Below are positions 1 through 30,982 of a stretch of DNA of 64,000 nt, piece by piece; position 1 is the stretch's first letter, and each line of letters starts with the position of its first letter. The notes beneath the pieces are model-generated. The model was not told the DNA's origin. It saw only the letters and a program-made list of their open reading frames with translations, and did not search any database. Source of the DNA: a virus; the IMG/VR virus record IMGVR_UViG_3300040770_000293, positions 20,449 to 84,448 of that record; one strand, 5' to 3'. Made by a program: the position numbers and the translations under genes.

Positions 1-103
1 CTAGGAGAGCTTTCAATAGGCGTGTAGATAGAAATGGAGTTAAGCAAAAATTCCTAGGTAAGAAAAATATATTTAAAAATAAATAAATTAAAAACCAATA
101 AAT

Positions 104-532
104 ATGAATAAATATTTCGATTGTTCTGTAAAATTTAGAAAAACAGACGAGCAAGGAGTTAACAAAGTAGTGACAGAAAGTTACATAGTTAGTGCTTTAT
201 CATTTAGTGAAGCAGAAAGCAATATTAATGAACAAATGAAGATTTATGTAGGAGAAGATTTTAAAGTAGTAAATATTAAACTCACCAACTATTCAGAGAT
301 TACTGCTTTTGAAGATACTGATAAGTGGTTTAAGTCGAAAGTTTCACTACTGTTTTTTGACGAAGATTCTGGAAAGGAAAAAAGACAAAATGTATATATA
401 CTAGTTCAAGCAAACAACGCTAAACAAGCCTATGAAAATACTGTTATTACTATGAAAGGAACAATGGATTTTTCTATTCCCTCCGTTTCTGAAACAAAAA
501 TCGTTGAAGTTTTTCAGCACTTAGTAGAATAA
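104..532 (+). CDS. DUF4494-like protein (Bacteroidota/phage)
   Basis: Two-repeat pattern YFDCSVKF...TESYIVSALSFSEAE / WFKSKVSL...ILVQA recognised as DUF4494-like. Confidence 0.75.
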   Translation: MNKYFDCSVKFRKTDEQGVNKVVTESYIVSALSFSEAESNINEQMKIYVGEDFKVVNIKLTNYSEITAFEDTDKWFKSKVSLLFFDEDSGKEKRQNVYILVQANNAKQAYENTVITMKGTMDFSIPSVSETKIVEVFQHLVE

Positions 533-539
533 AAATATA

Positions 540-690
540 AACCTTGTACTATGTAACGACACGTGAAATTAATATCGACATATACTGCCTGAAAGGTCAG
601 GCTACAAGGTTTTAAGAAACGAGGCTGTTTTCATTTGAATAACAGCACGCTACCTCGGACTATGATATAGTGACCGCACAATCGCGGTAA
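540..690 (+). ncRNA. Candidate structured RNA, 5' of HNH gene
   Basis: Stems 540-548/603-611, 550-554/578-582, 587-592/597-602, 620-624/653-657, 624-629/641-646, 659-663/667-671, 673-677/684-688; GC-rich for an intergenic region. Confidence 0.55.
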
Positions 691-701
691 ATTTTTAAAA
701 T

Positions 702-1196
702 ATGAGTAAAAGCAATGAAGCCTTATTACAGGCATACAAATTAGGATATAGGATAAGTACATGTGGTGTAAAACTACAAACCCCATTTAATTTAATAGAA
801 TTAAGAATACTAAATAATGATGGGTATCCAATATTCTCAACTAGGGTGTTTGGAGAACCTTTCCCGATATCTTGGCACAGATTACAAGCCTATCAAAAGT
901 ATGGAGAAAGAATATTTGAAAAAAATACAGTTGTAAGACATAAAAATAACATAAAAACAGATTGTAGTTGGGACAATATTTTAATAGGTACTCAAAAAGA
1001 AAATGTAAATGACAATCCAGCAGAAAAAAGATTAAAATACTCTTTAAATGCTACAGATAAATGGAGAAAGTACAACGCTACTGAAGTAAAAGATTTTTAC
1101 AAAAATTGCAAAAGCTATAAACAAACAATGGAAAACTTTGAAATATCCTCTAAAGGGACTTTACACTTTATACTAAACAATGCAAAATATAGTTAA
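702..1196 (+). CDS. HNH homing endonuclease
   Basis: WHRLQA...VVRHKNNIKTDCSWDNILIGTQKEN beta-beta-alpha-metal motif. Confidence 0.85.
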   Translation: MSKSNEALLQAYKLGYRISTCGVKLQTPFNLIELRILNNDGYPIFSTRVFGEPFPISWHRLQAYQKYGERIFEKNTVVRHKNNIKTDCSWDNILIGTQKENVNDNPAEKRLKYSLNATDKWRKYNATEVKDFYKNCKSYKQTMENFEISSKGTLHFILNNAKYS

Positions 1197-1385
1197 AACA
1201 GTCTTATATCTCAGCAAAAGAGGTGTCAACCTAGTGATTGACAAGAGAAGCTGTCTTGTAAGTTGTATTTTAAAGAAACAGATAAACCCAATCGTGAGGG
1301 GTTTTATAGAGGACAAAGCGAATAAGTCGGATATACTATTTTAGGAGAGGTAATTTAAAGAGTTATAAAATCTTCTGTTTCTTTA
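1197..1385 (+). ncRNA. Candidate structured RNA, 3' of HNH gene
   Basis: Multi-stem junction 1198-1254; 11-bp long-range stem 1272-1282/1374-1384 enclosing hairpin 1284-1289/1299-1304. Confidence 0.5.
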
Positions 1386-1392
1386 TTTTTTA

Positions 1393-1424
1393 TTTGCGGA
1401 ATTAAAATTAATATTATATATTTG
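1393..1424 (+). promoter_or_regulatory. Bacteroidota sigma-A-type promoter
   Basis: TTTG-N20-TATATTTG. Confidence 0.8.
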
Positions 1425-1444
1425 CACAACAAAAACTTAAAACT

Positions 1445-1663
1445 ATGACAACAACAGAATTCTTATTCAGTTTTACATTTGTATTTGGAGTAATATACTT
1501 ACTATCACATACAACACTATTTACAAAAAGTTTAGAGACTTTTACAGAAGCCTTTACTATTAAAACTCCTACATGGTTAAAGTTTGTTGGTTATTGGGGA
1601 GTCTATGTATCTCTTTTTTATCAATCTTTATTTTGGGCTAAATATTTTAACATTTTAAATTAA
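1445..1663 (+). CDS. Hypothetical membrane protein
   Basis: Two hydrophobic segments; first gene after promoter. Confidence 0.65.
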   Translation: MTTTEFLFSFTFVFGVIYLLSHTTLFTKSLETFTEAFTIKTPTWLKFVGYWGVYVSLFYQSLFWAKYFNILN

Positions 1664-1668
1664 ACATT

Positions 1669-1998
1669 ATGAATAAAGTTTTCACACAAAAAAGTAAAAT
1701 AGAGTTAGACCTTAATTGGGATTTAACCTCAGATGGGGATTATGGATTAGTCCTAACTTTCTCAGAGACAAGACAAAGAGATAAAACCGTAAAAGAAAAC
1801 GGCAAAACAATTAAAACAGGAGAAAAAGAAGACTACTTATATGAAAGTAAAACATACCATACAAGAGTAGCGCAAGCTTTAAGATACTATGTAGAAAAAT
1901 CCTTAAATAAGTGTAAAACTTTAGAAGAGATAATTAGTAAGGAAGATAAACTATTAAGTATTATAGAAGATTTAGATAGAAATTTTAAACAATTTTAA
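1669..1998 (+). CDS. Hypothetical protein
   Basis: ORF in tightly packed operon. Confidence 0.7.
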   Translation: MNKVFTQKSKIELDLNWDLTSDGDYGLVLTFSETRQRDKTVKENGKTIKTGEKEDYLYESKTYHTRVAQALRYYVEKSLNKCKTLEEIISKEDKLLSIIEDLDRNFKQF

Positions 1999-2000
1999 TT

Positions 2001-2207
2001 ATGACATTAGGAGATTTAGTATTAGGTATTATTATGATTGCGATATTAATAGAAGCTTTTATAAACATTAAAAAGTTAGGTTTTGAAAAATATTCAATAG
2101 GTAGAAGTTTTTCATATTGGATGATATTTTGTGGTAAACTTGTATTCTTAATTATTGCACTTGTTTACTTTTTAGATAAAATAAATTGGAACTATAAAAT
2201 ATTTTAA
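2001..2207 (+). CDS. Hypothetical membrane protein
   Basis: Two hydrophobic segments; TAATTATG junction. Confidence 0.65.
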   Translation: MTLGDLVLGIIMIAILIEAFINIKKLGFEKYSIGRSFSYWMIFCGKLVFLIIALVYFLDKINWNYKIF

Positions 2208-2209
2208 TT

Positions 2210-2449
2210 ATGATAATAGCAATTTTAATATTATTTTACATTGGTTCTATTTTTCTTTGCCGATATGCTTTTAGAATGCAATATATTTGGCATGATTGGC
2301 TTAAAAAAGATGTAAAATTAAATATACTGTGGTTTATTCCTTTTGGTAATTTTATTGTAGGTATTTTATTTTTAATCGTTGGGTACCCTTTTAAAAAAAT
2401 AAGTTTTACAAATAAATTTTTAAGATGGTTTAGTAATCAAGATTTATAA
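2210..2449 (+). CDS. Hypothetical membrane protein
   Basis: Hydrophobic segments; TAATTATG junction. Confidence 0.65.
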   Translation: MIIAILILFYIGSIFLCRYAFRMQYIWHDWLKKDVKLNILWFIPFGNFIVGILFLIVGYPFKKISFTNKFLRWFSNQDL

Positions 2450-2534
2450 AAAAATTAGACATACTTTAATTTAAAAACTAAAGTATAATCTATTTTATAA
2501 TTCAATATAAATATTGTACTTTTACAAAACATTA

Positions 2535-2603
2535 TATAAGAGGTTGTCCGAGACACCTGAATTACAGTAGACTTTAACGAGTGCTGAGAGTTCAAATAAA
2601 TAC
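2535..2603 (+). ncRNA. Candidate structured leader/sRNA upstream of nrdB
   Basis: Hairpin 2541-2558; nested stems 2558-2563/2589-2594 and 2565-2569/2582-2586, directly followed by a terminator. Confidence 0.4.
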
Positions 2604-2637
2604 AAATCCTCAACGTTAATTCGTTGAGGATTTTTTT
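2604..2637 (+). terminator. Intrinsic terminator
   Basis: 12-bp stem AAATCCTCAACG/CGTTGAGGATTT with T-tract. Confidence 0.85.
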
Positions 2638-2643
2638 ACCACC

Positions 2644-2766
2644 AAAAATATATGAAAAGATTAAAGAGCTCACATAAAAGAAGTAGCAAATATTTGGAAG
2701 GATAAGATAACAGACCAAGTTTATCAAGCATTAATAAATTACGAAGTAGACATAACAAATTTATAA
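2644..2766 (+). pseudogene. C-terminal remnant of an HNH endonuclease
   Basis: Reads HIKEVANIWKDKITDQVYQALINYEVDIT; 2716-2750 is identical (35 nt) to 27192-27226 in the intact HNH gene; frameshifted, no start. Confidence 0.8.
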
Positions 2767-2785
2767 CTATAAAACAATTAAATAA

Positions 2786-3769
2786 ATGAGTATTTTTGAC
2801 AAGAGGGTTGCAGTTAAGCCCTATGAGTATCCAGAATTACTACACTACATGAACGCCATTCGAGGCACTATATGGTATGTAGATGAATTCAGAGAAAGAT
2901 TAGATAGAGATGTAAGCGATTATCACAATGTATTAACTGATAAAGAACGAGGAGTTATAAAAAGAGCCTTATTAGCTATCTCTCAAATTGAGGTTTCTGT
3001 TAAAACTTTTTGGGGTAAAGTTGGTGATAATTTACCTAAACCAGAAGTTTATATGGTAGGATACACCTTTGCTATGAATGAAATTATTCACCAAGAAGCT
3101 TATAGTGAGCTACTTACGAGATTAGGTTTAGAAAATGAGTTTGCAAAAGCTTTAAAAGAACCTGTTATAGAAGGAAGGGTAGAATACCTTACAAAGTATA
3201 TAAAAGGAGCTTCTGAGAACAAAAGGGAAAATTATGTATTAAATTTATTATTGTTTAGTTCTTTTATAGAGTCGTGTTCTTTATTTAGTCAGTTCTATAT
3301 TGTTAAATCTTTTTGCCAAAAAAGACAGAAACTTAAAACTATCGACAATATCATCATGGCTACAGCTAAAGAAGAAGATGTGCATTTTCAGTTTGGTGTG
3401 GCTCTTATCAACATTATTAAGAAAGAATACCCTGAATGGTTTAATGAAGATTTCTATAATAAGATTAGAAGAGCATGTAAAAAAGCTTATGATGCAGAAT
3501 TAAAGATTATAGATTGGATATTTGATGGCGAAGACTTAGATTTTATATCTAAAAATGATGTAGAGTTGTTTATTCAAGACCGCTTTAATAAAGCTTTAAA
3601 TGCTATAGGTATAGAAAGTATGTTTGAAATAGATGTAAATCAATTAGGTGAATCTACAAAATGGTTTGAAGAAGAAAGAATTTTAGATGTAAGAGTAGAT
3701 TTTTTTGATGTACAATCTCCAAATTATACAATAGGTCAGCAAGATATTTCGGCTGATTCGTTGTTTTAA
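2786..3769 (+). CDS. nrdB: Ribonucleotide reductase class I beta subunit (class Id-like)
   Basis: Ferritin-like ligands QIEVSVK, NEIIHQEAY, IESCSLF, EEDVH. Confidence 0.95.
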   Translation: MSIFDKRVAVKPYEYPELLHYMNAIRGTIWYVDEFRERLDRDVSDYHNVLTDKERGVIKRALLAISQIEVSVKTFWGKVGDNLPKPEVYMVGYTFAMNEIIHQEAYSELLTRLGLENEFAKALKEPVIEGRVEYLTKYIKGASENKRENYVLNLLLFSSFIESCSLFSQFYIVKSFCQKRQKLKTIDNIIMATAKEEDVHFQFGVALINIIKKEYPEWFNEDFYNKIRRACKKAYDAELKIIDWIFDGEDLDFISKNDVELFIQDRFNKALNAIGIESMFEIDVNQLGESTKWFEEERILDVRVDFFDVQSPNYTIGQQDISADSLF

Positions 3770-3784
3770 AAATTAATAATAAAA

Positions 3785-5443
3785 ATGAAAAAAGAATTTG
3801 AAAAGTGGTATTGGTTAAATGAACAAAGTAAATTATTCTTACAAAACGGGTACATAAAAGGAGACGAAATAGAGCACTTTAAAAAAATAGGGGATAAAGC
3901 AGAGGGTATTTTAGATAAAAAAGGTTATTCTGAAAAGTTTTTAGACTATTTATCAAGAGGTTGGTTTTTACTTCCTACGCCAGGTATAACTAATTATTTA
4001 GATAAAAAAGAAAGTGCGATTTCCTGTTTTGGGAGCTATGCAGAGGACTCTGTAGAAGGGCTATTATTTACAGACGCTGAAGTTGGAATGCTGTCAAAAA
4101 TTGGAGGAGGGACTTCAGGAGATCTTTCTGCCATTAGAAAAGAAGGTGCACCAATAACGGGCGGAGGTTTTGCTGATGGAGTTATGAGATATGTAAAAAG
4201 ACTTCAAGATACGACTAGTTGGATTAGTCAAAGAAGTAGAAGAGGTAAGTTTGCAGCTTATTTAGATGTTGAACACCCAGACATTGATAAGTTTTTGACT
4301 ATTAAAGATAAAACTTCTGATATACATGAAGTGCCTTTTGCAGTAAAAATAGGAGATGAATGGATAAGACAGTTAAAAGAAGGAGATATTGATAAAAGGA
4401 ATATTTGGGCTAAAATAATTAAGAAGAAGTTTGAGACAGGGTTTCCTTATATAATGTTTAAAGACAATGTTAATAACAACAGACCTGATATTTACAAAGA
4501 ATTAGGTAAGTATGTAAATAACAGTAATTTATGTACTGAGATACTTTTAAATAATGATCATAAAAACACTTTTGTCTGTTGTATTGGAGCTATGAATCTA
4601 GTACACTTTGATGAGTGGAAAGATACAGATGCTGTAGAAGTTTTACTTAATCTTTTAGATACTTTTTTATTAGATTTTATAGCTAAAAATGAAGACAATC
4701 CTTTAATGCAACGAACTGTTAGATTTGCAAAGGATCAAATGGCAGTTGGTATTGGAGCTAGTGGATACCACTCTTACTTACAGATGAATATGATTCCTTT
4801 AGAAAGTATGGAAGCTAAGTTTAAAAATACAGAGATATTTGGTAAGCTTAGAGAGATGTCTTATAAAGCTTCTGAAAAGATGGCTTTGGAATATGGGAAA
4901 GCTCCTATGTTAAAAGATGATAAATACAAGAGAAGACATGTCACTTTAAATGCTATTGCTCCTAACACTTCAAGTAGTGAAATTGTTGGACAATGGTCTC
5001 AAAGTATAGAGCCCGTTTATAGTAACTACTTTATTAAGGCTTTAGCTAAATCAAAACACTCTCAAAAAAATGTATTCTTAGAAGAGTTATTAAAAAGTAA
5101 AGGTAAAAACACAGAACATGTTTGGGAAAGTATTAAGAACAATAATGGTTCAGTTCAACACTTAAGTTTTTTAACTGATATAGAAAGATCTGTTTTTAAA
5201 ACTTTTCCTGAAGTAAGTCCTATGGAACTTTTAATACAAAATGCCACTAGAACAAAGTTTATTGACCAAGGTATTTCATTTAATACTATGATTCCTTTTG
5301 GTACATCTGCTAAAGAAGTTAGTGATTACTACTTAAAAGCACATGAAATGGGTGTAAAAACTTTGTATTATCAATTGAATCAGAATGCGGCTCAAAACTT
5401 TACAAGAAAGTCAATACTAGAATGTGACAGTTGTGCTGGATAA
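3785..5443 (+). CDS. nrdA: Ribonucleotide reductase class I alpha subunit, no ATP cone
   Basis: ISCF, SNLCTEI, IAPNTSSS, DQGISFN, KTLYY and C-terminal CDSC motifs; only 552 aa. Confidence 0.95.
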   Translation: MKKEFEKWYWLNEQSKLFLQNGYIKGDEIEHFKKIGDKAEGILDKKGYSEKFLDYLSRGWFLLPTPGITNYLDKKESAISCFGSYAEDSVEGLLFTDAEVGMLSKIGGGTSGDLSAIRKEGAPITGGGFADGVMRYVKRLQDTTSWISQRSRRGKFAAYLDVEHPDIDKFLTIKDKTSDIHEVPFAVKIGDEWIRQLKEGDIDKRNIWAKIIKKKFETGFPYIMFKDNVNNNRPDIYKELGKYVNNSNLCTEILLNNDHKNTFVCCIGAMNLVHFDEWKDTDAVEVLLNLLDTFLLDFIAKNEDNPLMQRTVRFAKDQMAVGIGASGYHSYLQMNMIPLESMEAKFKNTEIFGKLREMSYKASEKMALEYGKAPMLKDDKYKRRHVTLNAIAPNTSSSEIVGQWSQSIEPVYSNYFIKALAKSKHSQKNVFLEELLKSKGKNTEHVWESIKNNNGSVQHLSFLTDIERSVFKTFPEVSPMELLIQNATRTKFIDQGISFNTMIPFGTSAKEVSDYYLKAHEMGVKTLYYQLNQNAAQNFTRKSILECDSCAG

Positions 5444-20352: not shown

Positions 20353-20610
20353 ATGAAAACAAGTGGATTTAAAGAGTATAGACTGAATAAAGAAGATAAG
20401 TACTATGCTACAGAGATTAAAGCTTTAGAAATATTTAATAAGGGCTATTTAGAAGATGCGGACTTAATTGTTTTTGGGCAAAAAGATGGAACTTGTATGG
20501 AAGCAAAAGATAGTTTAACTGACAGGGAAGAAAAAATAGTTTTAGGGGTCATACAATGGTTGGGGACTCCAGTAGGGCAAGGTTTTATCAGAGAATTAAA
20601 GGATGAATAA
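20353..20610 (+). CDS. Hypothetical protein
   Basis: QWLGTPVGQGFI motif; first gene after promoter. Confidence 0.7.
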   Translation: MKTSGFKEYRLNKEDKYYATEIKALEIFNKGYLEDADLIVFGQKDGTCMEAKDSLTDREEKIVLGVIQWLGTPVGQGFIRELKDE

Positions 20611-22127: not shown

Positions 22128-23028
22128 TTTTATTGACTCAGTGTCTTTTCAGTTTTTTCCTGCCCGAATTTGGGATGCTACTCCTCTTGGAGAATTAACT
22201 TTAAGGCAATTTTTAGACGTTCATAGAGAGCCAAAAGAATCTACGGTAAAAGTTATTGAAGAGATTAAAGAAGCAGCTAAAAACAATGATTTAAAGCTTA
22301 AGGATTCTCTAAAGCAAAATAATCTATATTCTTTTGTTCCGTCTGTTAAATTAGATGGTTTAGGTAGAGCGTATTCAAATGTTGTTGATTTTAATCCCGT
22401 AATGATTTGTGAGTTTGATAAAATTGACCACGCAAAAGAATTGAAAGAAAGGCTCTTTAATAATTTAAAATGTGTTATAGCTGCTTGGATTTCACCTTCA
22501 GGTAGAGGATTAAAACTTTTAATTCGTATAGAAAAACCTACTTCAATTGATAATTATAAAGAATATTATTGTGGTTTGGCTTACTATCTATCTCAATATG
22601 AGGGTTTTGACCCAGCTAATTTCAACTGTTGTTTACCTTTATTCTTGTCTTACGATAAAGAGATATTGATTAGAGAGGATGCAGAAGTTTGGACTCGACG
22701 AGGAGGTAAAATAAATGCTTTTCAAAATTATCATGGAGAATTTGAAATTCCCAACACTATTGATGATGAAGTAAAACAAAGAATAATAAATAAAATAACA
22801 TACTTAGTTGACAGAATTGATGACGGGGCACATCCAAAAATAAGAAGTATAGCAACTATTTTTGGAGGTTTTTGTTCCTATTACGGATTTTCCTTAGAAG
22901 ATGCAGATAATTTAATTTGTGAGTTAATATCAAATAATAAGTATATGCAAAAAGACATAAGGGGTTATTCAAAAACAGGTACAAGCTTTATAAGAAAAGG
23001 CATGTTGTCTCCTTTAGAATTGGATTAA
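22117..23028 (+). CDS. VirE N-terminal/BT4734-like (primase-associated) protein
   Basis: LYSFVPSV, CEFDKID, WISPSGRGLKLLI, LFLSYD. Confidence 0.65.
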   Translation: MSVSFIDSVSFQFFPARIWDATPLGELTLRQFLDVHREPKESTVKVIEEIKEAAKNNDLKLKDSLKQNNLYSFVPSVKLDGLGRAYSNVVDFNPVMICEFDKIDHAKELKERLFNNLKCVIAAWISPSGRGLKLLIRIEKPTSIDNYKEYYCGLAYYLSQYEGFDPANFNCCLPLFLSYDKEILIREDAEVWTRRGGKINAFQNYHGEFEIPNTIDDEVKQRIINKITYLVDRIDDGAHPKIRSIATIFGGFCSYYGFSLEDADNLICELISNNKYMQKDIRGYSKTGTSFIRKGMLSPLELD

Positions 23029-23050
23029 ATTTTGGCACGGTATTTGGTAT

Positions 23051-23086
23051 ATTGTAATTACAAACATATTAAAAATTAATTACAAT
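23051..23086. promoter_or_regulatory. Inverted-repeat operator candidate
   Basis: ATTGTAATTA-N16-TAATTACAAT overlapping the RHH start codon. Confidence 0.5.
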
Positions 23087-30727: not shown

Positions 30728-30982
30728 ATGAATTTTACTAAAGATGAATGGAAAGAACTGGCTAAAAGATTTAACGAGAAAAAGTTCTTAGGTAAATTAT
30801 TACTTATAAAACAAAATCCTACTTTATTTAAACTTGAAATAGATTCAGGTTGGATGATGTTAAGGCTTCACAGTGAAGAAGCTATGCAACAGGAATTTGA
30901 CATGTTATTTGAATTCTCAAATGAATTATCTTCAAGTGATATAAATGATTTATTTTGGGCGGCAGACATAAAAACTTATTAA
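30728..30982 (+). CDS. Hypothetical protein
   Basis: TAATTATG junction. Confidence 0.6.
   Translation: MNFTKDEWKELAKRFNEKKFLGKLLLIKQNPTLFKLEIDSGWMMLRLHSEEAMQQEFDMLFEFSNELSSSDINDLFWAADIKTY

Follow-up and report, generated by a model that had tools for sequence, protein, structure and literature searches.

We examined a 64,000-nucleotide stretch of viral DNA (hereafter the window; positions 20,449 to 84,448 of the IMG/VR virus record IMGVR_UViG_3300040770_000293), near the start of which an HNH endonuclease gene lies between two structured non-coding flanks. The source genome is a 98.5-kb IMG/VR viral contig with a GC content of 30%, and the locus occupies the plus strand. An initial annotation, made from the letters alone, had proposed that the region 540-1385 is an unclassified phage non-coding RNA split by an invading endonuclease, a new intron or ribozyme class, or an RNA partner of the nuclease. 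Read along the strand (Table 1), a gene for a DUF4494 protein is followed by a 5' flank with a branched hairpin and a conserved RNA motif that we call module A, by the HNH open reading frame (ORF), by a 3' flank with a further hairpin, a long terminator-like stem that we call the clamp and a candidate promoter, and then by two small ORFs and nrdB. Contigs used for comparison are denoted by L numbers.

Table 1. Features of the locus in window coordinates (z, folding z-score).
Feature	Coordinates	Strand	Remarks
DUF4494 ORF, 142 aa	104..532	+	Pfam DUF4494 5.9e-40, profile positions 1-139 of 139; intact
5' non-coding flank	533-701	+	
Branched hairpin	536..614	+	-20.4 kcal/mol, z -3.3; outer stem 539-548/603-612, inner hairpin 586-601, then UUUU
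Module A, conserved RNA motif of ~80 nt	612..695	+	z -3.3; covariance models, covariation
Module A, 5' strand UUAAGA..CGA	5' part of 612..695	+	
Module A, P1	620-624/653-657	+	
Module A, P2 hairpin	625-629/641-645	+	
Module A, conserved junction (A)CGCUAC	647-653	+	
Module A, conserved single strand UGAUA(U)AGUGA	663-673	+	
Module A, P4 hairpin	673-677/684-688	+	then 3' UAAA
HNH_3 ORF, 164 aa	702..1196	+	Pfam HNH_3 2.8e-8; PHROG HNH families
3' non-coding flank	1197-1444	+	
Post-ORF extended hairpin	1197..1267	+	-17.9 kcal/mol, z -2.1; directly after HNH stop codon
Clamp terminator (by layout)	1271..1391	+	12-bp stem 1271-1282/1374-1385, 91-nt insert, T-run TTTTTT 1386-1391
Candidate Bacteroidota-type promoter	1393..1424	+	-33 TTTG 1393-1396, -7 TATATTTG 1417-1424, spacing 20 nt
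72-aa ORF, downstream neighbour	1445..1663	+	intact; L047 ortholog 73 aa, same start
109-aa ORF	1669-1998	+	
nrdB	starts 2786	+	

Module A arranges about 35 conserved unpaired nucleotides around three short helices, with a family consensus of UUAAGA.UCGA, P2, (A)CGCUAC, the closing strand of P1, UGAnA-AGUGA, P4 with an ACA loop, and UAAA. It was first recognised by eye between the window and relatives; a covariance model (R1) was built from the window and L048 copies, the family was extended by R1, two pattern scans of viral contigs and one metagenome pattern scan, and a second model (R2) was made. The motif occurs in 10 phage or metagenome contigs (the window, L167, L048, L166, L095, L161, L067, L073, L159 and L047), and the L047 copy, which lay outside the training set, is recovered with R2 at E 6.4e-6. 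Covariation, which the initial annotation had named as a way of probing the flanks, is present in P2 and P4. In an alignment of nine sequences 95.3% of the cells are paired, compared with 28-50% when the partners are slid against each other, and the covariation score was reached by none of 500 shuffles. Both sides have changed at all five pairs of P2 and at three of the four pairs of P4, the conserved strands UCGA, GCUAC and UGAnA-AGUG accompany these compensatory changes, and both helices form in every member folded singly. Some G-U pairs in the helices are consistent with an RNA of the plus strand.

Module A is single-copy in the 98.5-kb genome. Two further matches were considered as second copies and rejected, one at 30852-30929 (R2), which falls within an ORF and is missing the conserved strands, and one at 23013-23077 (R1, E 0.3-2.1) on the same grounds. 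A strict module A pattern gave no matches in bacterial genome contigs, and module A has no match in Rfam 15 (window positions 1-3000, E up to 10). On these searches it is new relative to Rfam 15, a comparison that did not take in the 8,495 candidates of the IMG/VR structured-RNA catalogue (PMC10690425). Two additional structural proposals were not adopted: a pseudoknot between the P2 loop and AGUGA, judged by eye, is inconsistent across members; and an attenuator formed by P4 and the following U-run is possible in the three ORF-linked copies, which a terminator scanner marks as terminator-like, but the U-run may instead be an A/U-rich translation leader.

The surroundings of module A differ considerably between contigs. 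In L073 and L159, which carry arrays of 8 to ~20 transfer RNAs (tRNAs), it begins 2-3 nt after tRNA-Cys and is followed by a T-arm-like hairpin and tRNA-Leu, while in L048, L166 and L161 the next element, which combines an acceptor stem with a GGUUCGA-type T-arm, starts within 0-7 nt of its end. The L067 copy overlaps the stop codon of a small ORF homologous to a helix-turn-helix-like ORF of L048, and is succeeded by a tRNA-Met-like gene and then by a tRNA-like element of the L048/L166/L161 kind; in L047 the motif precedes a second conserved block (module B) and then an RNA (z -2.6) of cloverleaf-like form whose central arm branches. Elsewhere it stands before protein-coding genes: a PRA-PH/MazG-like ORF begins ~23 nt past P4 in L095, another ORF ~24 nt past P4 in L167, and in the window the HNH start codon lies 13 nt past P4, after an A/U-rich leader. 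The 3' half of the motif in L167 is 87% identical to that of the window and the two diverge within ~3 nt of the HNH start codon, which is where we therefore place the 5' border of the HNH cassette. Occurring as it does in tRNA arrays, before tRNA-like elements and before unrelated ORFs, module A behaves as an autonomous unit that is set before RNA genes or ORFs.

The conserved unpaired bases, together with the position at tRNA-like 5' ends, suggest a leader that would take part in processing, stabilising or sensing. A stronger version of this would make module A a self-cleaving or otherwise catalytic processing RNA that defines the 5' end of the downstream RNA or the 3' end of the upstream tRNA, and that serves here as the HNH leader. 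About 35 conserved unpaired nucleotides fit a ribozyme or aptamer better than they do a simple leader, the motif abuts tRNA or tRNA-like ends in 5 or 6 contigs (within 2-7 nt), and small ribozymes are common in phages. However, it matches none of the Rfam ribozyme families, a cis-regulatory role fits equally in the three contigs in which it precedes ORFs, and RNase P alone could process a structured leader, so that we regard catalysis as improbable.

The 3' flank can be followed in relatives through the clamp. The initial annotation had described an 11-bp stem at 1272-1282/1374-1384, which is present and proves one base pair longer, with all 12 pairs complementary (100%). Its arms, AAAGAAACAG and CTGTTTCTTT, and the T-run are identical in the window and in L047 and L048, neither of which has the HNH gene; L067, also HNH-less, has the arms AGAAACAG and CTGTTTCTTT, its 3' arm and T-run being identical to those of the window. 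L048 was itself found by a pattern made from the two arms of this stem. The enclosed inserts differ: L047 and L048 have a common insert of 64-66 nt, L067 has module B, and the 91 nt of the window are private to it. The element as a whole (1268-1390) folds with z -2.1, and a simple terminator scanner omits it because the enclosed part is 91 nt long. A stable stem followed by a U-run is the layout of an intrinsic terminator, which the clamp has, and from which we infer termination itself. Downstream of it, the -7 region of the candidate promoter and the 72-aa ORF are conserved in L047, and the promoter resembles in type the Bacteroidota consensus TTTG/TAnnTTTG. We read the 3' flank, on its sequence, as the terminator of an island of stable RNAs followed by the promoter of the next unit.

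A TTT(C)GGCG(C/G)AAA motif follows the T-run of the clamp in the window (1393-1399) and at matching sites in L047, L048 and L067, and the window copy supplies the -33 TTTG of the next promoter. Module B, a conserved block of ~85 nt starting CUGU.ACUAGGCUUAAUAGCGCAGAUUCCGAACAGU, is found at L047:4525-4610 and on the minus strand at L067:2765-2690; it follows module A in L047 and sits inside the clamp stem in L067, a placement that looks like the shuffling of RNA modules.

Relatives without the nuclease, which the initial annotation had suggested seeking, retain portions of either flank: L047, L048 and L067 keep the clamp arms, and L047 and L166 keep the DUF4494 gene followed by module A, while L167 has a different ORF in the place of HNH. 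In L047, the closest syntenic relative, the order is DUF4494, module A, module B, a tRNA-like element, the clamp terminator and the 72-aa ORF, with a non-coding interval of 759 nt and no HNH gene, against 872 nt in the window. The segment 696-1267 of the window (~570 nt, comprising the HNH gene and the post-ORF hairpin) stands opposite ~550 nt in L047 that hold module B, a spacer and the tRNA-like RNA.

These comparisons bear directly on the proposal of a non-coding RNA split by an endonuclease, which of the original proposals comes closest to what we find: module A covaries and the clamp arms are kept where HNH is missing, but the flanks are not halves of one RNA, since tRNA-like elements and module B separate them in the HNH-less relatives. 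From these sequences we judge the two flanks to be separate elements, independent of the nuclease. In its most developed form the proposal would hold that everything from module A through to the clamp is one large ornate RNA, ~650-760 nt long in HNH-less relatives, which HNH has split; it would be comparable to GOLLD or ROOL, large RNAs that phages carry and that are associated with tRNAs. Indeed, L047, L048 and L067 are continuously non-coding over ~650-800 nt from the module A side to the clamp and contain tRNA-like elements, and GOLLD can embed tRNAs. The Cellulophaga phage phi14:2 is also known to make abundant long non-coding RNAs (bioRxiv 10.1101/2020.03.07.982082). Against a single large RNA, the order and context of the modules vary, as the two positions of module B illustrate, and module A stands alone before ORFs (L095, L167) and between tRNAs (L073, L159). 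The long folds of the relatives are not significantly stable (z -1.4 and -1.6), and the flanks show no long-range pairing to each other. GOLLD and ROOL are unmatched in the window, L047 and L048 (Rfam, E up to 10) and in L067, L073 and L095 (E up to 0.1). We therefore consider a single large RNA unlikely, if somewhat less so than catalysis by module A.

The ORF between the flanks was named correctly as an HNH endonuclease, with a Pfam HNH_3 domain and matches to PHROG HNH families (Table 1). Aligned with six homologues of 41-50% identity, it retains the catalytic His and the conserved Asn residues of a beta-beta-alpha-metal HNH motif, with His80, Asn92 and Asn101 invariant, and shares an invariant C-terminal block, SYK.TM..F.I.S.G.LH. 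It is intergenic, as both neighbouring ORFs are intact and no intron model matches, and by its sequence it is an intact, free-standing HNH_3 homing endonuclease, an ordinary mobile gene. We collected 44 loci of HNH homologues from viral contigs (34-50% identity), of which 40 were tabulated for spacing; at most of these 40 it is closely flanked by other ORFs, the intergenic spacers being 0-60 nt long. The flanks of the homologue loci have no sequence similarity to those of the window, and module A was found by covariance models R1 and R2 at none of the 44. A perfect 9-nt inverted repeat, TTTAAAATA / TATTTTAAA, lies at 694-702 and 1266-1274, exactly at the borders of the HNH cassette; it consists of A and T only and may have arisen by chance.

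Flanks of ~160 and ~190 nt around an HNH ORF have the proportions of ORF-bearing group I introns, and both are structured, which would suit an intron of group I-like or new class whose ribozyme core they formed, the ORF being held in a loop. No host gene is interrupted, however: the DUF4494 and 72-aa ORFs are complete, the former being an upstream neighbour and not an exon, and ARAGORN finds no tRNA or transfer-messenger RNA (tmRNA) halves in the flanks. No intron model, Intron_gpI included, matches the contiguous 1-3000 in Rfam at E up to 10. Joining the flanks gains ~4 kcal/mol through A/U-only pairs, and the fold of the full 868-nt transcript contains no inter-flank pairs. In the nine other contigs module A has neither an ORF insertion nor a 3' partner, and in HNH-less relatives the flanks are not joined. 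With no interrupted gene and no model match, the suggested new intron class finds no support, and an intron of any kind seems very improbable here.

The idea that the flanking RNA is a guide or partner of the nuclease, as HEARO (omega RNA) is of IscB, is favoured by nothing more than an HNH ORF lying next to structured RNA. The protein has 164 aa and a single HNH_3 domain without RuvC, whereas IscB is a RuvC-HNH protein of ~400-500 aa; the initial observation that neither a canonical group I core nor IscB RuvC motifs are visible is borne out, as Intron_gpI is unmatched and the RuvC domain absent. HEARO has no match in Rfam at E up to 10. Given that none of the 44 homologue loci has the motif and that the protein lacks RuvC, we removed the partner-RNA explanation from further consideration as having a next to negligible chance; nine of the ten motif copies, moreover, have no adjacent HNH gene. 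More generally, Rfam 15 offers no family for either flank (E up to 10), with chance-level matches only in the flank searches (window 1-3000, L047 and L048 at E up to 10; L067, L073 and L095 at E up to 0.1). Across the 98.5-kb genome, the window included, ARAGORN calls neither a tRNA nor a tmRNA, and its low-threshold and intron modes return nothing credible on the flanks.

Both flanks had been described as densely structured and GC-enriched. Dense structure holds for the 5' flank (533-701), which folds at -42.3 kcal/mol compared with -28.3 +/- 3.5 for shuffled sequences (z -3.98, with 0 of 200 shuffles as good), but not for the 3' flank as a whole (1197-1444), which is unexceptional at z -1.26, with 24 of 200 shuffles as good. 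GC enrichment is real but modest: the window has 30% overall, the 5' flank 37-39% and positions 1201-1300 38%, while 1351-1450 reaches only 18%. Other intergenic gaps are indeed AT-rich, but not uniformly short: a crude ORF map contains 23 gaps that span at least 120 nt, including one that extends over 2.2 kb, and the 5' flank is the most GC-rich of the 23, with 37% compared with 23-30% in the others.

The 5' stem originally placed at 540-548/603-611 is present as the fully complementary (100%) 10-bp stem 539-548/603-612 and encloses, as had been stated, the GCCTGA-AAGG-TCAGGC hairpin (586-601). The branched hairpin so formed is genome-specific, with similar sequence in no relative, and in L095 and L167 a hairpin with a U-run likewise sits directly before module A. 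Its probable role is that of a terminator or insulator downstream of the DUF4494 gene. By reading, neither this hairpin (536-614) nor module A contains a host-type promoter. The post-ORF hairpin (1197-1267) has no counterpart in relatives or in the HNH-homologue loci, and probably belongs to the HNH cassette as a stabiliser of its 3' end.

Taking these observations together, we think it reasonably probable that we are dealing with an island of stable RNAs in the genome of a marine Bacteroidota phage, in which the HNH gene is variable cargo between separate conserved RNA and regulatory boundaries. Transcription from upstream would yield module A as the structured 5' leader of whichever unit follows, here the HNH mRNA, with a likely role in processing, stabilising or attenuating that unit, and the clamp stem with its T-run would terminate it. 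In a co-infected cell the endonuclease, by analogy with known homing systems, would cut HNH-less alleles of the island site-specifically, and the gene would be copied into them by gene conversion as the break is repaired. Module A on one side, and the terminator arms with the promoter on the other, would provide the homology for recombination, which would explain how ~570 nt (696-1267) came to stand in place of the ~550 nt of RNA genes in L047. Conserved RNA and terminator boundaries could in this way frame exchangeable cargo in Bacteroidota phages. Module A is of interest in its own right as a compact, information-rich, covarying motif tied to tRNA and tRNA-like genes of uncultured marine phages.

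There is a minor but real chance, slightly greater than that of the large RNA taken by itself, that module A represents a new functional class of phage RNA, either a leader for tRNA-like RNAs and accessory genes of marine Bacteroidota phages that HNH has captured for its own expression, or the conserved 5' domain of a new, large and ornate RNA that HNH has split. As a leader of this kind it could be self-processing, or could bind a ligand or protein, and so set the 5' end or the expression of what follows.

The arrangement proposed for the stable-RNA island has close precedents in phage T4, where segB is located in a tRNA gene cluster (PMC2330249) and mobE is a free-standing HNH gene between nrd genes (PMC2790892). 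As in these cases, the window has a small intergenic endonuclease ORF outside any intron and patchy among relatives, located among tRNA-like and stable RNA genes and next to ribonucleotide reductase (nrdB at 2786). Once the new-intron and guide-RNA readings are discarded, what is left is of a kind already known, a homing endonuclease gene that stands free among the stable-RNA genes of a phage. Unlike the HNH gene, segB encodes a GIY-YIG protein, and HNH stands in place of tRNA-like genes rather than between them. The boundaries recall the conserved PeSL promoter-terminator cassettes that bound modules in T4-type phages and mediate their shuffling (PMC2839356, PMC4122927): in both, a conserved stem-loop terminator and a promoter bound variable cargo and stay identical while phage genes have diverged. 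They differ in sequence and in the type of host promoter, the clamp stem closes a structured insert of 64-95 nt and not a small loop, and the role in recombination is a putative one for the boundaries at this locus.

A further parallel is phi14:2, a cultured crAss-like Cellulophaga phage whose early long intergenic regions are transcribed above most of its mRNAs (bioRxiv 10.1101/2020.03.07.982082). It is likewise a marine phage of Bacteroidota, its small early genes are interspersed with long, structured non-coding intervals, and one of these intervals encodes a tRNA-like RNA; at 4031-4500 of its genome (L165, NC_021806), in the non-coding interval before g006, ARAGORN calls a 470-nt tmRNA with the tag GSSVQKLAMVA*, which could belong to the abundant long non-coding RNAs reported from its g004-g006 region. 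The window also shares with GOLLD, ROOL, HEARO and group I introns with HNH ORFs the presence of a phage-borne structured RNA near tRNAs or an HNH ORF. It differs from them in having no Rfam match, modular and independently placed elements, no exons and no RuvC-HNH protein.

Several points weigh against the stable-RNA island as we have described it. Module A is absent from phi14:2 by sequence and model search, and g004 of that phage is not homologous to the upstream proteins of the window, so that phi14:2 serves as an analogy only. Homing is likewise an analogy, as no relative has the same HNH gene at this site, and either HNH has replaced the RNA genes or the reverse has happened, the direction not being polarised by a tree. 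Transcript ends, processing and terminator function are all inferred. The covariation alignment is model-fitted and comprises just 9-10 sequences, some of them closely related. The register of P1 in the window and L048, which carry CCUCG in place of the CGAA of the others, differs from that in the remaining members; being short and shifted in these two, P1 is rated as plausible only. The 536-614 hairpin is more stable on the minus strand (z -6.0), and, there being no comparators, functions for this hairpin, the post-ORF hairpin and the clamp insert are argued solely from folding energy (z -2 to -3).

The tRNA-like RNAs of the relatives merit separate description. Five of them, at L047:4928-5050, L048:1399-1499, L067:2993-2848 (minus strand), L166:398-252 (minus strand) and L161:10745-10668 (minus strand), have an acceptor stem, a GGUUCGA-type T-arm and an expanded or branched central domain (100-145 nt), and none is called by default ARAGORN or by Rfam. 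RNAs of this construction evidently escape standard tRNA finders. The acceptor stem and T-arm covary between L067 and L166, and the central arm of the L047 RNA itself looks like another tRNA-like unit in permuted form. A conserved tag reading frame was seen in none of these RNAs. Upstream of module A, L048 (1155-1200) and L166 (minus strand) share a non-coding block, AAACGCC.UAUCUUAG.CGAAAGG..AAAUAGU.CAGC.ACGGG, which lies ~90 nt upstream of the motif in L166.

Neither positions 1-3000 (blastn) nor the 109-aa ORF (tblastn) has a match in the GenBank phage collection, and a metagenome protein-pattern scan with an alignment of the 109-aa ORF gave none, while tblastn with DUF4494 reached distant gut Bacteroidales phages only in the GenBank phage collection. 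In L047 the DUF4494 ortholog is 80% identical and ends at the same position, and the 72-aa ORF has 83% nucleotide identity to its counterpart there. Farther upstream in the window's own genome, ~150-450 nt before window position 1 (L001:577-880), a non-coding stretch of ~300 nt precedes DUF4494 and terminates in a hairpin with a U-run; its 3' part recurs on the minus strand at L167:4520-4655, directly before the L167 module A. L047 also has a 224-aa ORF (3256-3930) with no Pfam match at a place where the window's genome has a non-coding stretch and a 57-aa ORF, and the adjoining sequence upstream of the 224-aa ORF is 94% identical between the two genomes. The site is another replacement in the same neighbourhood.

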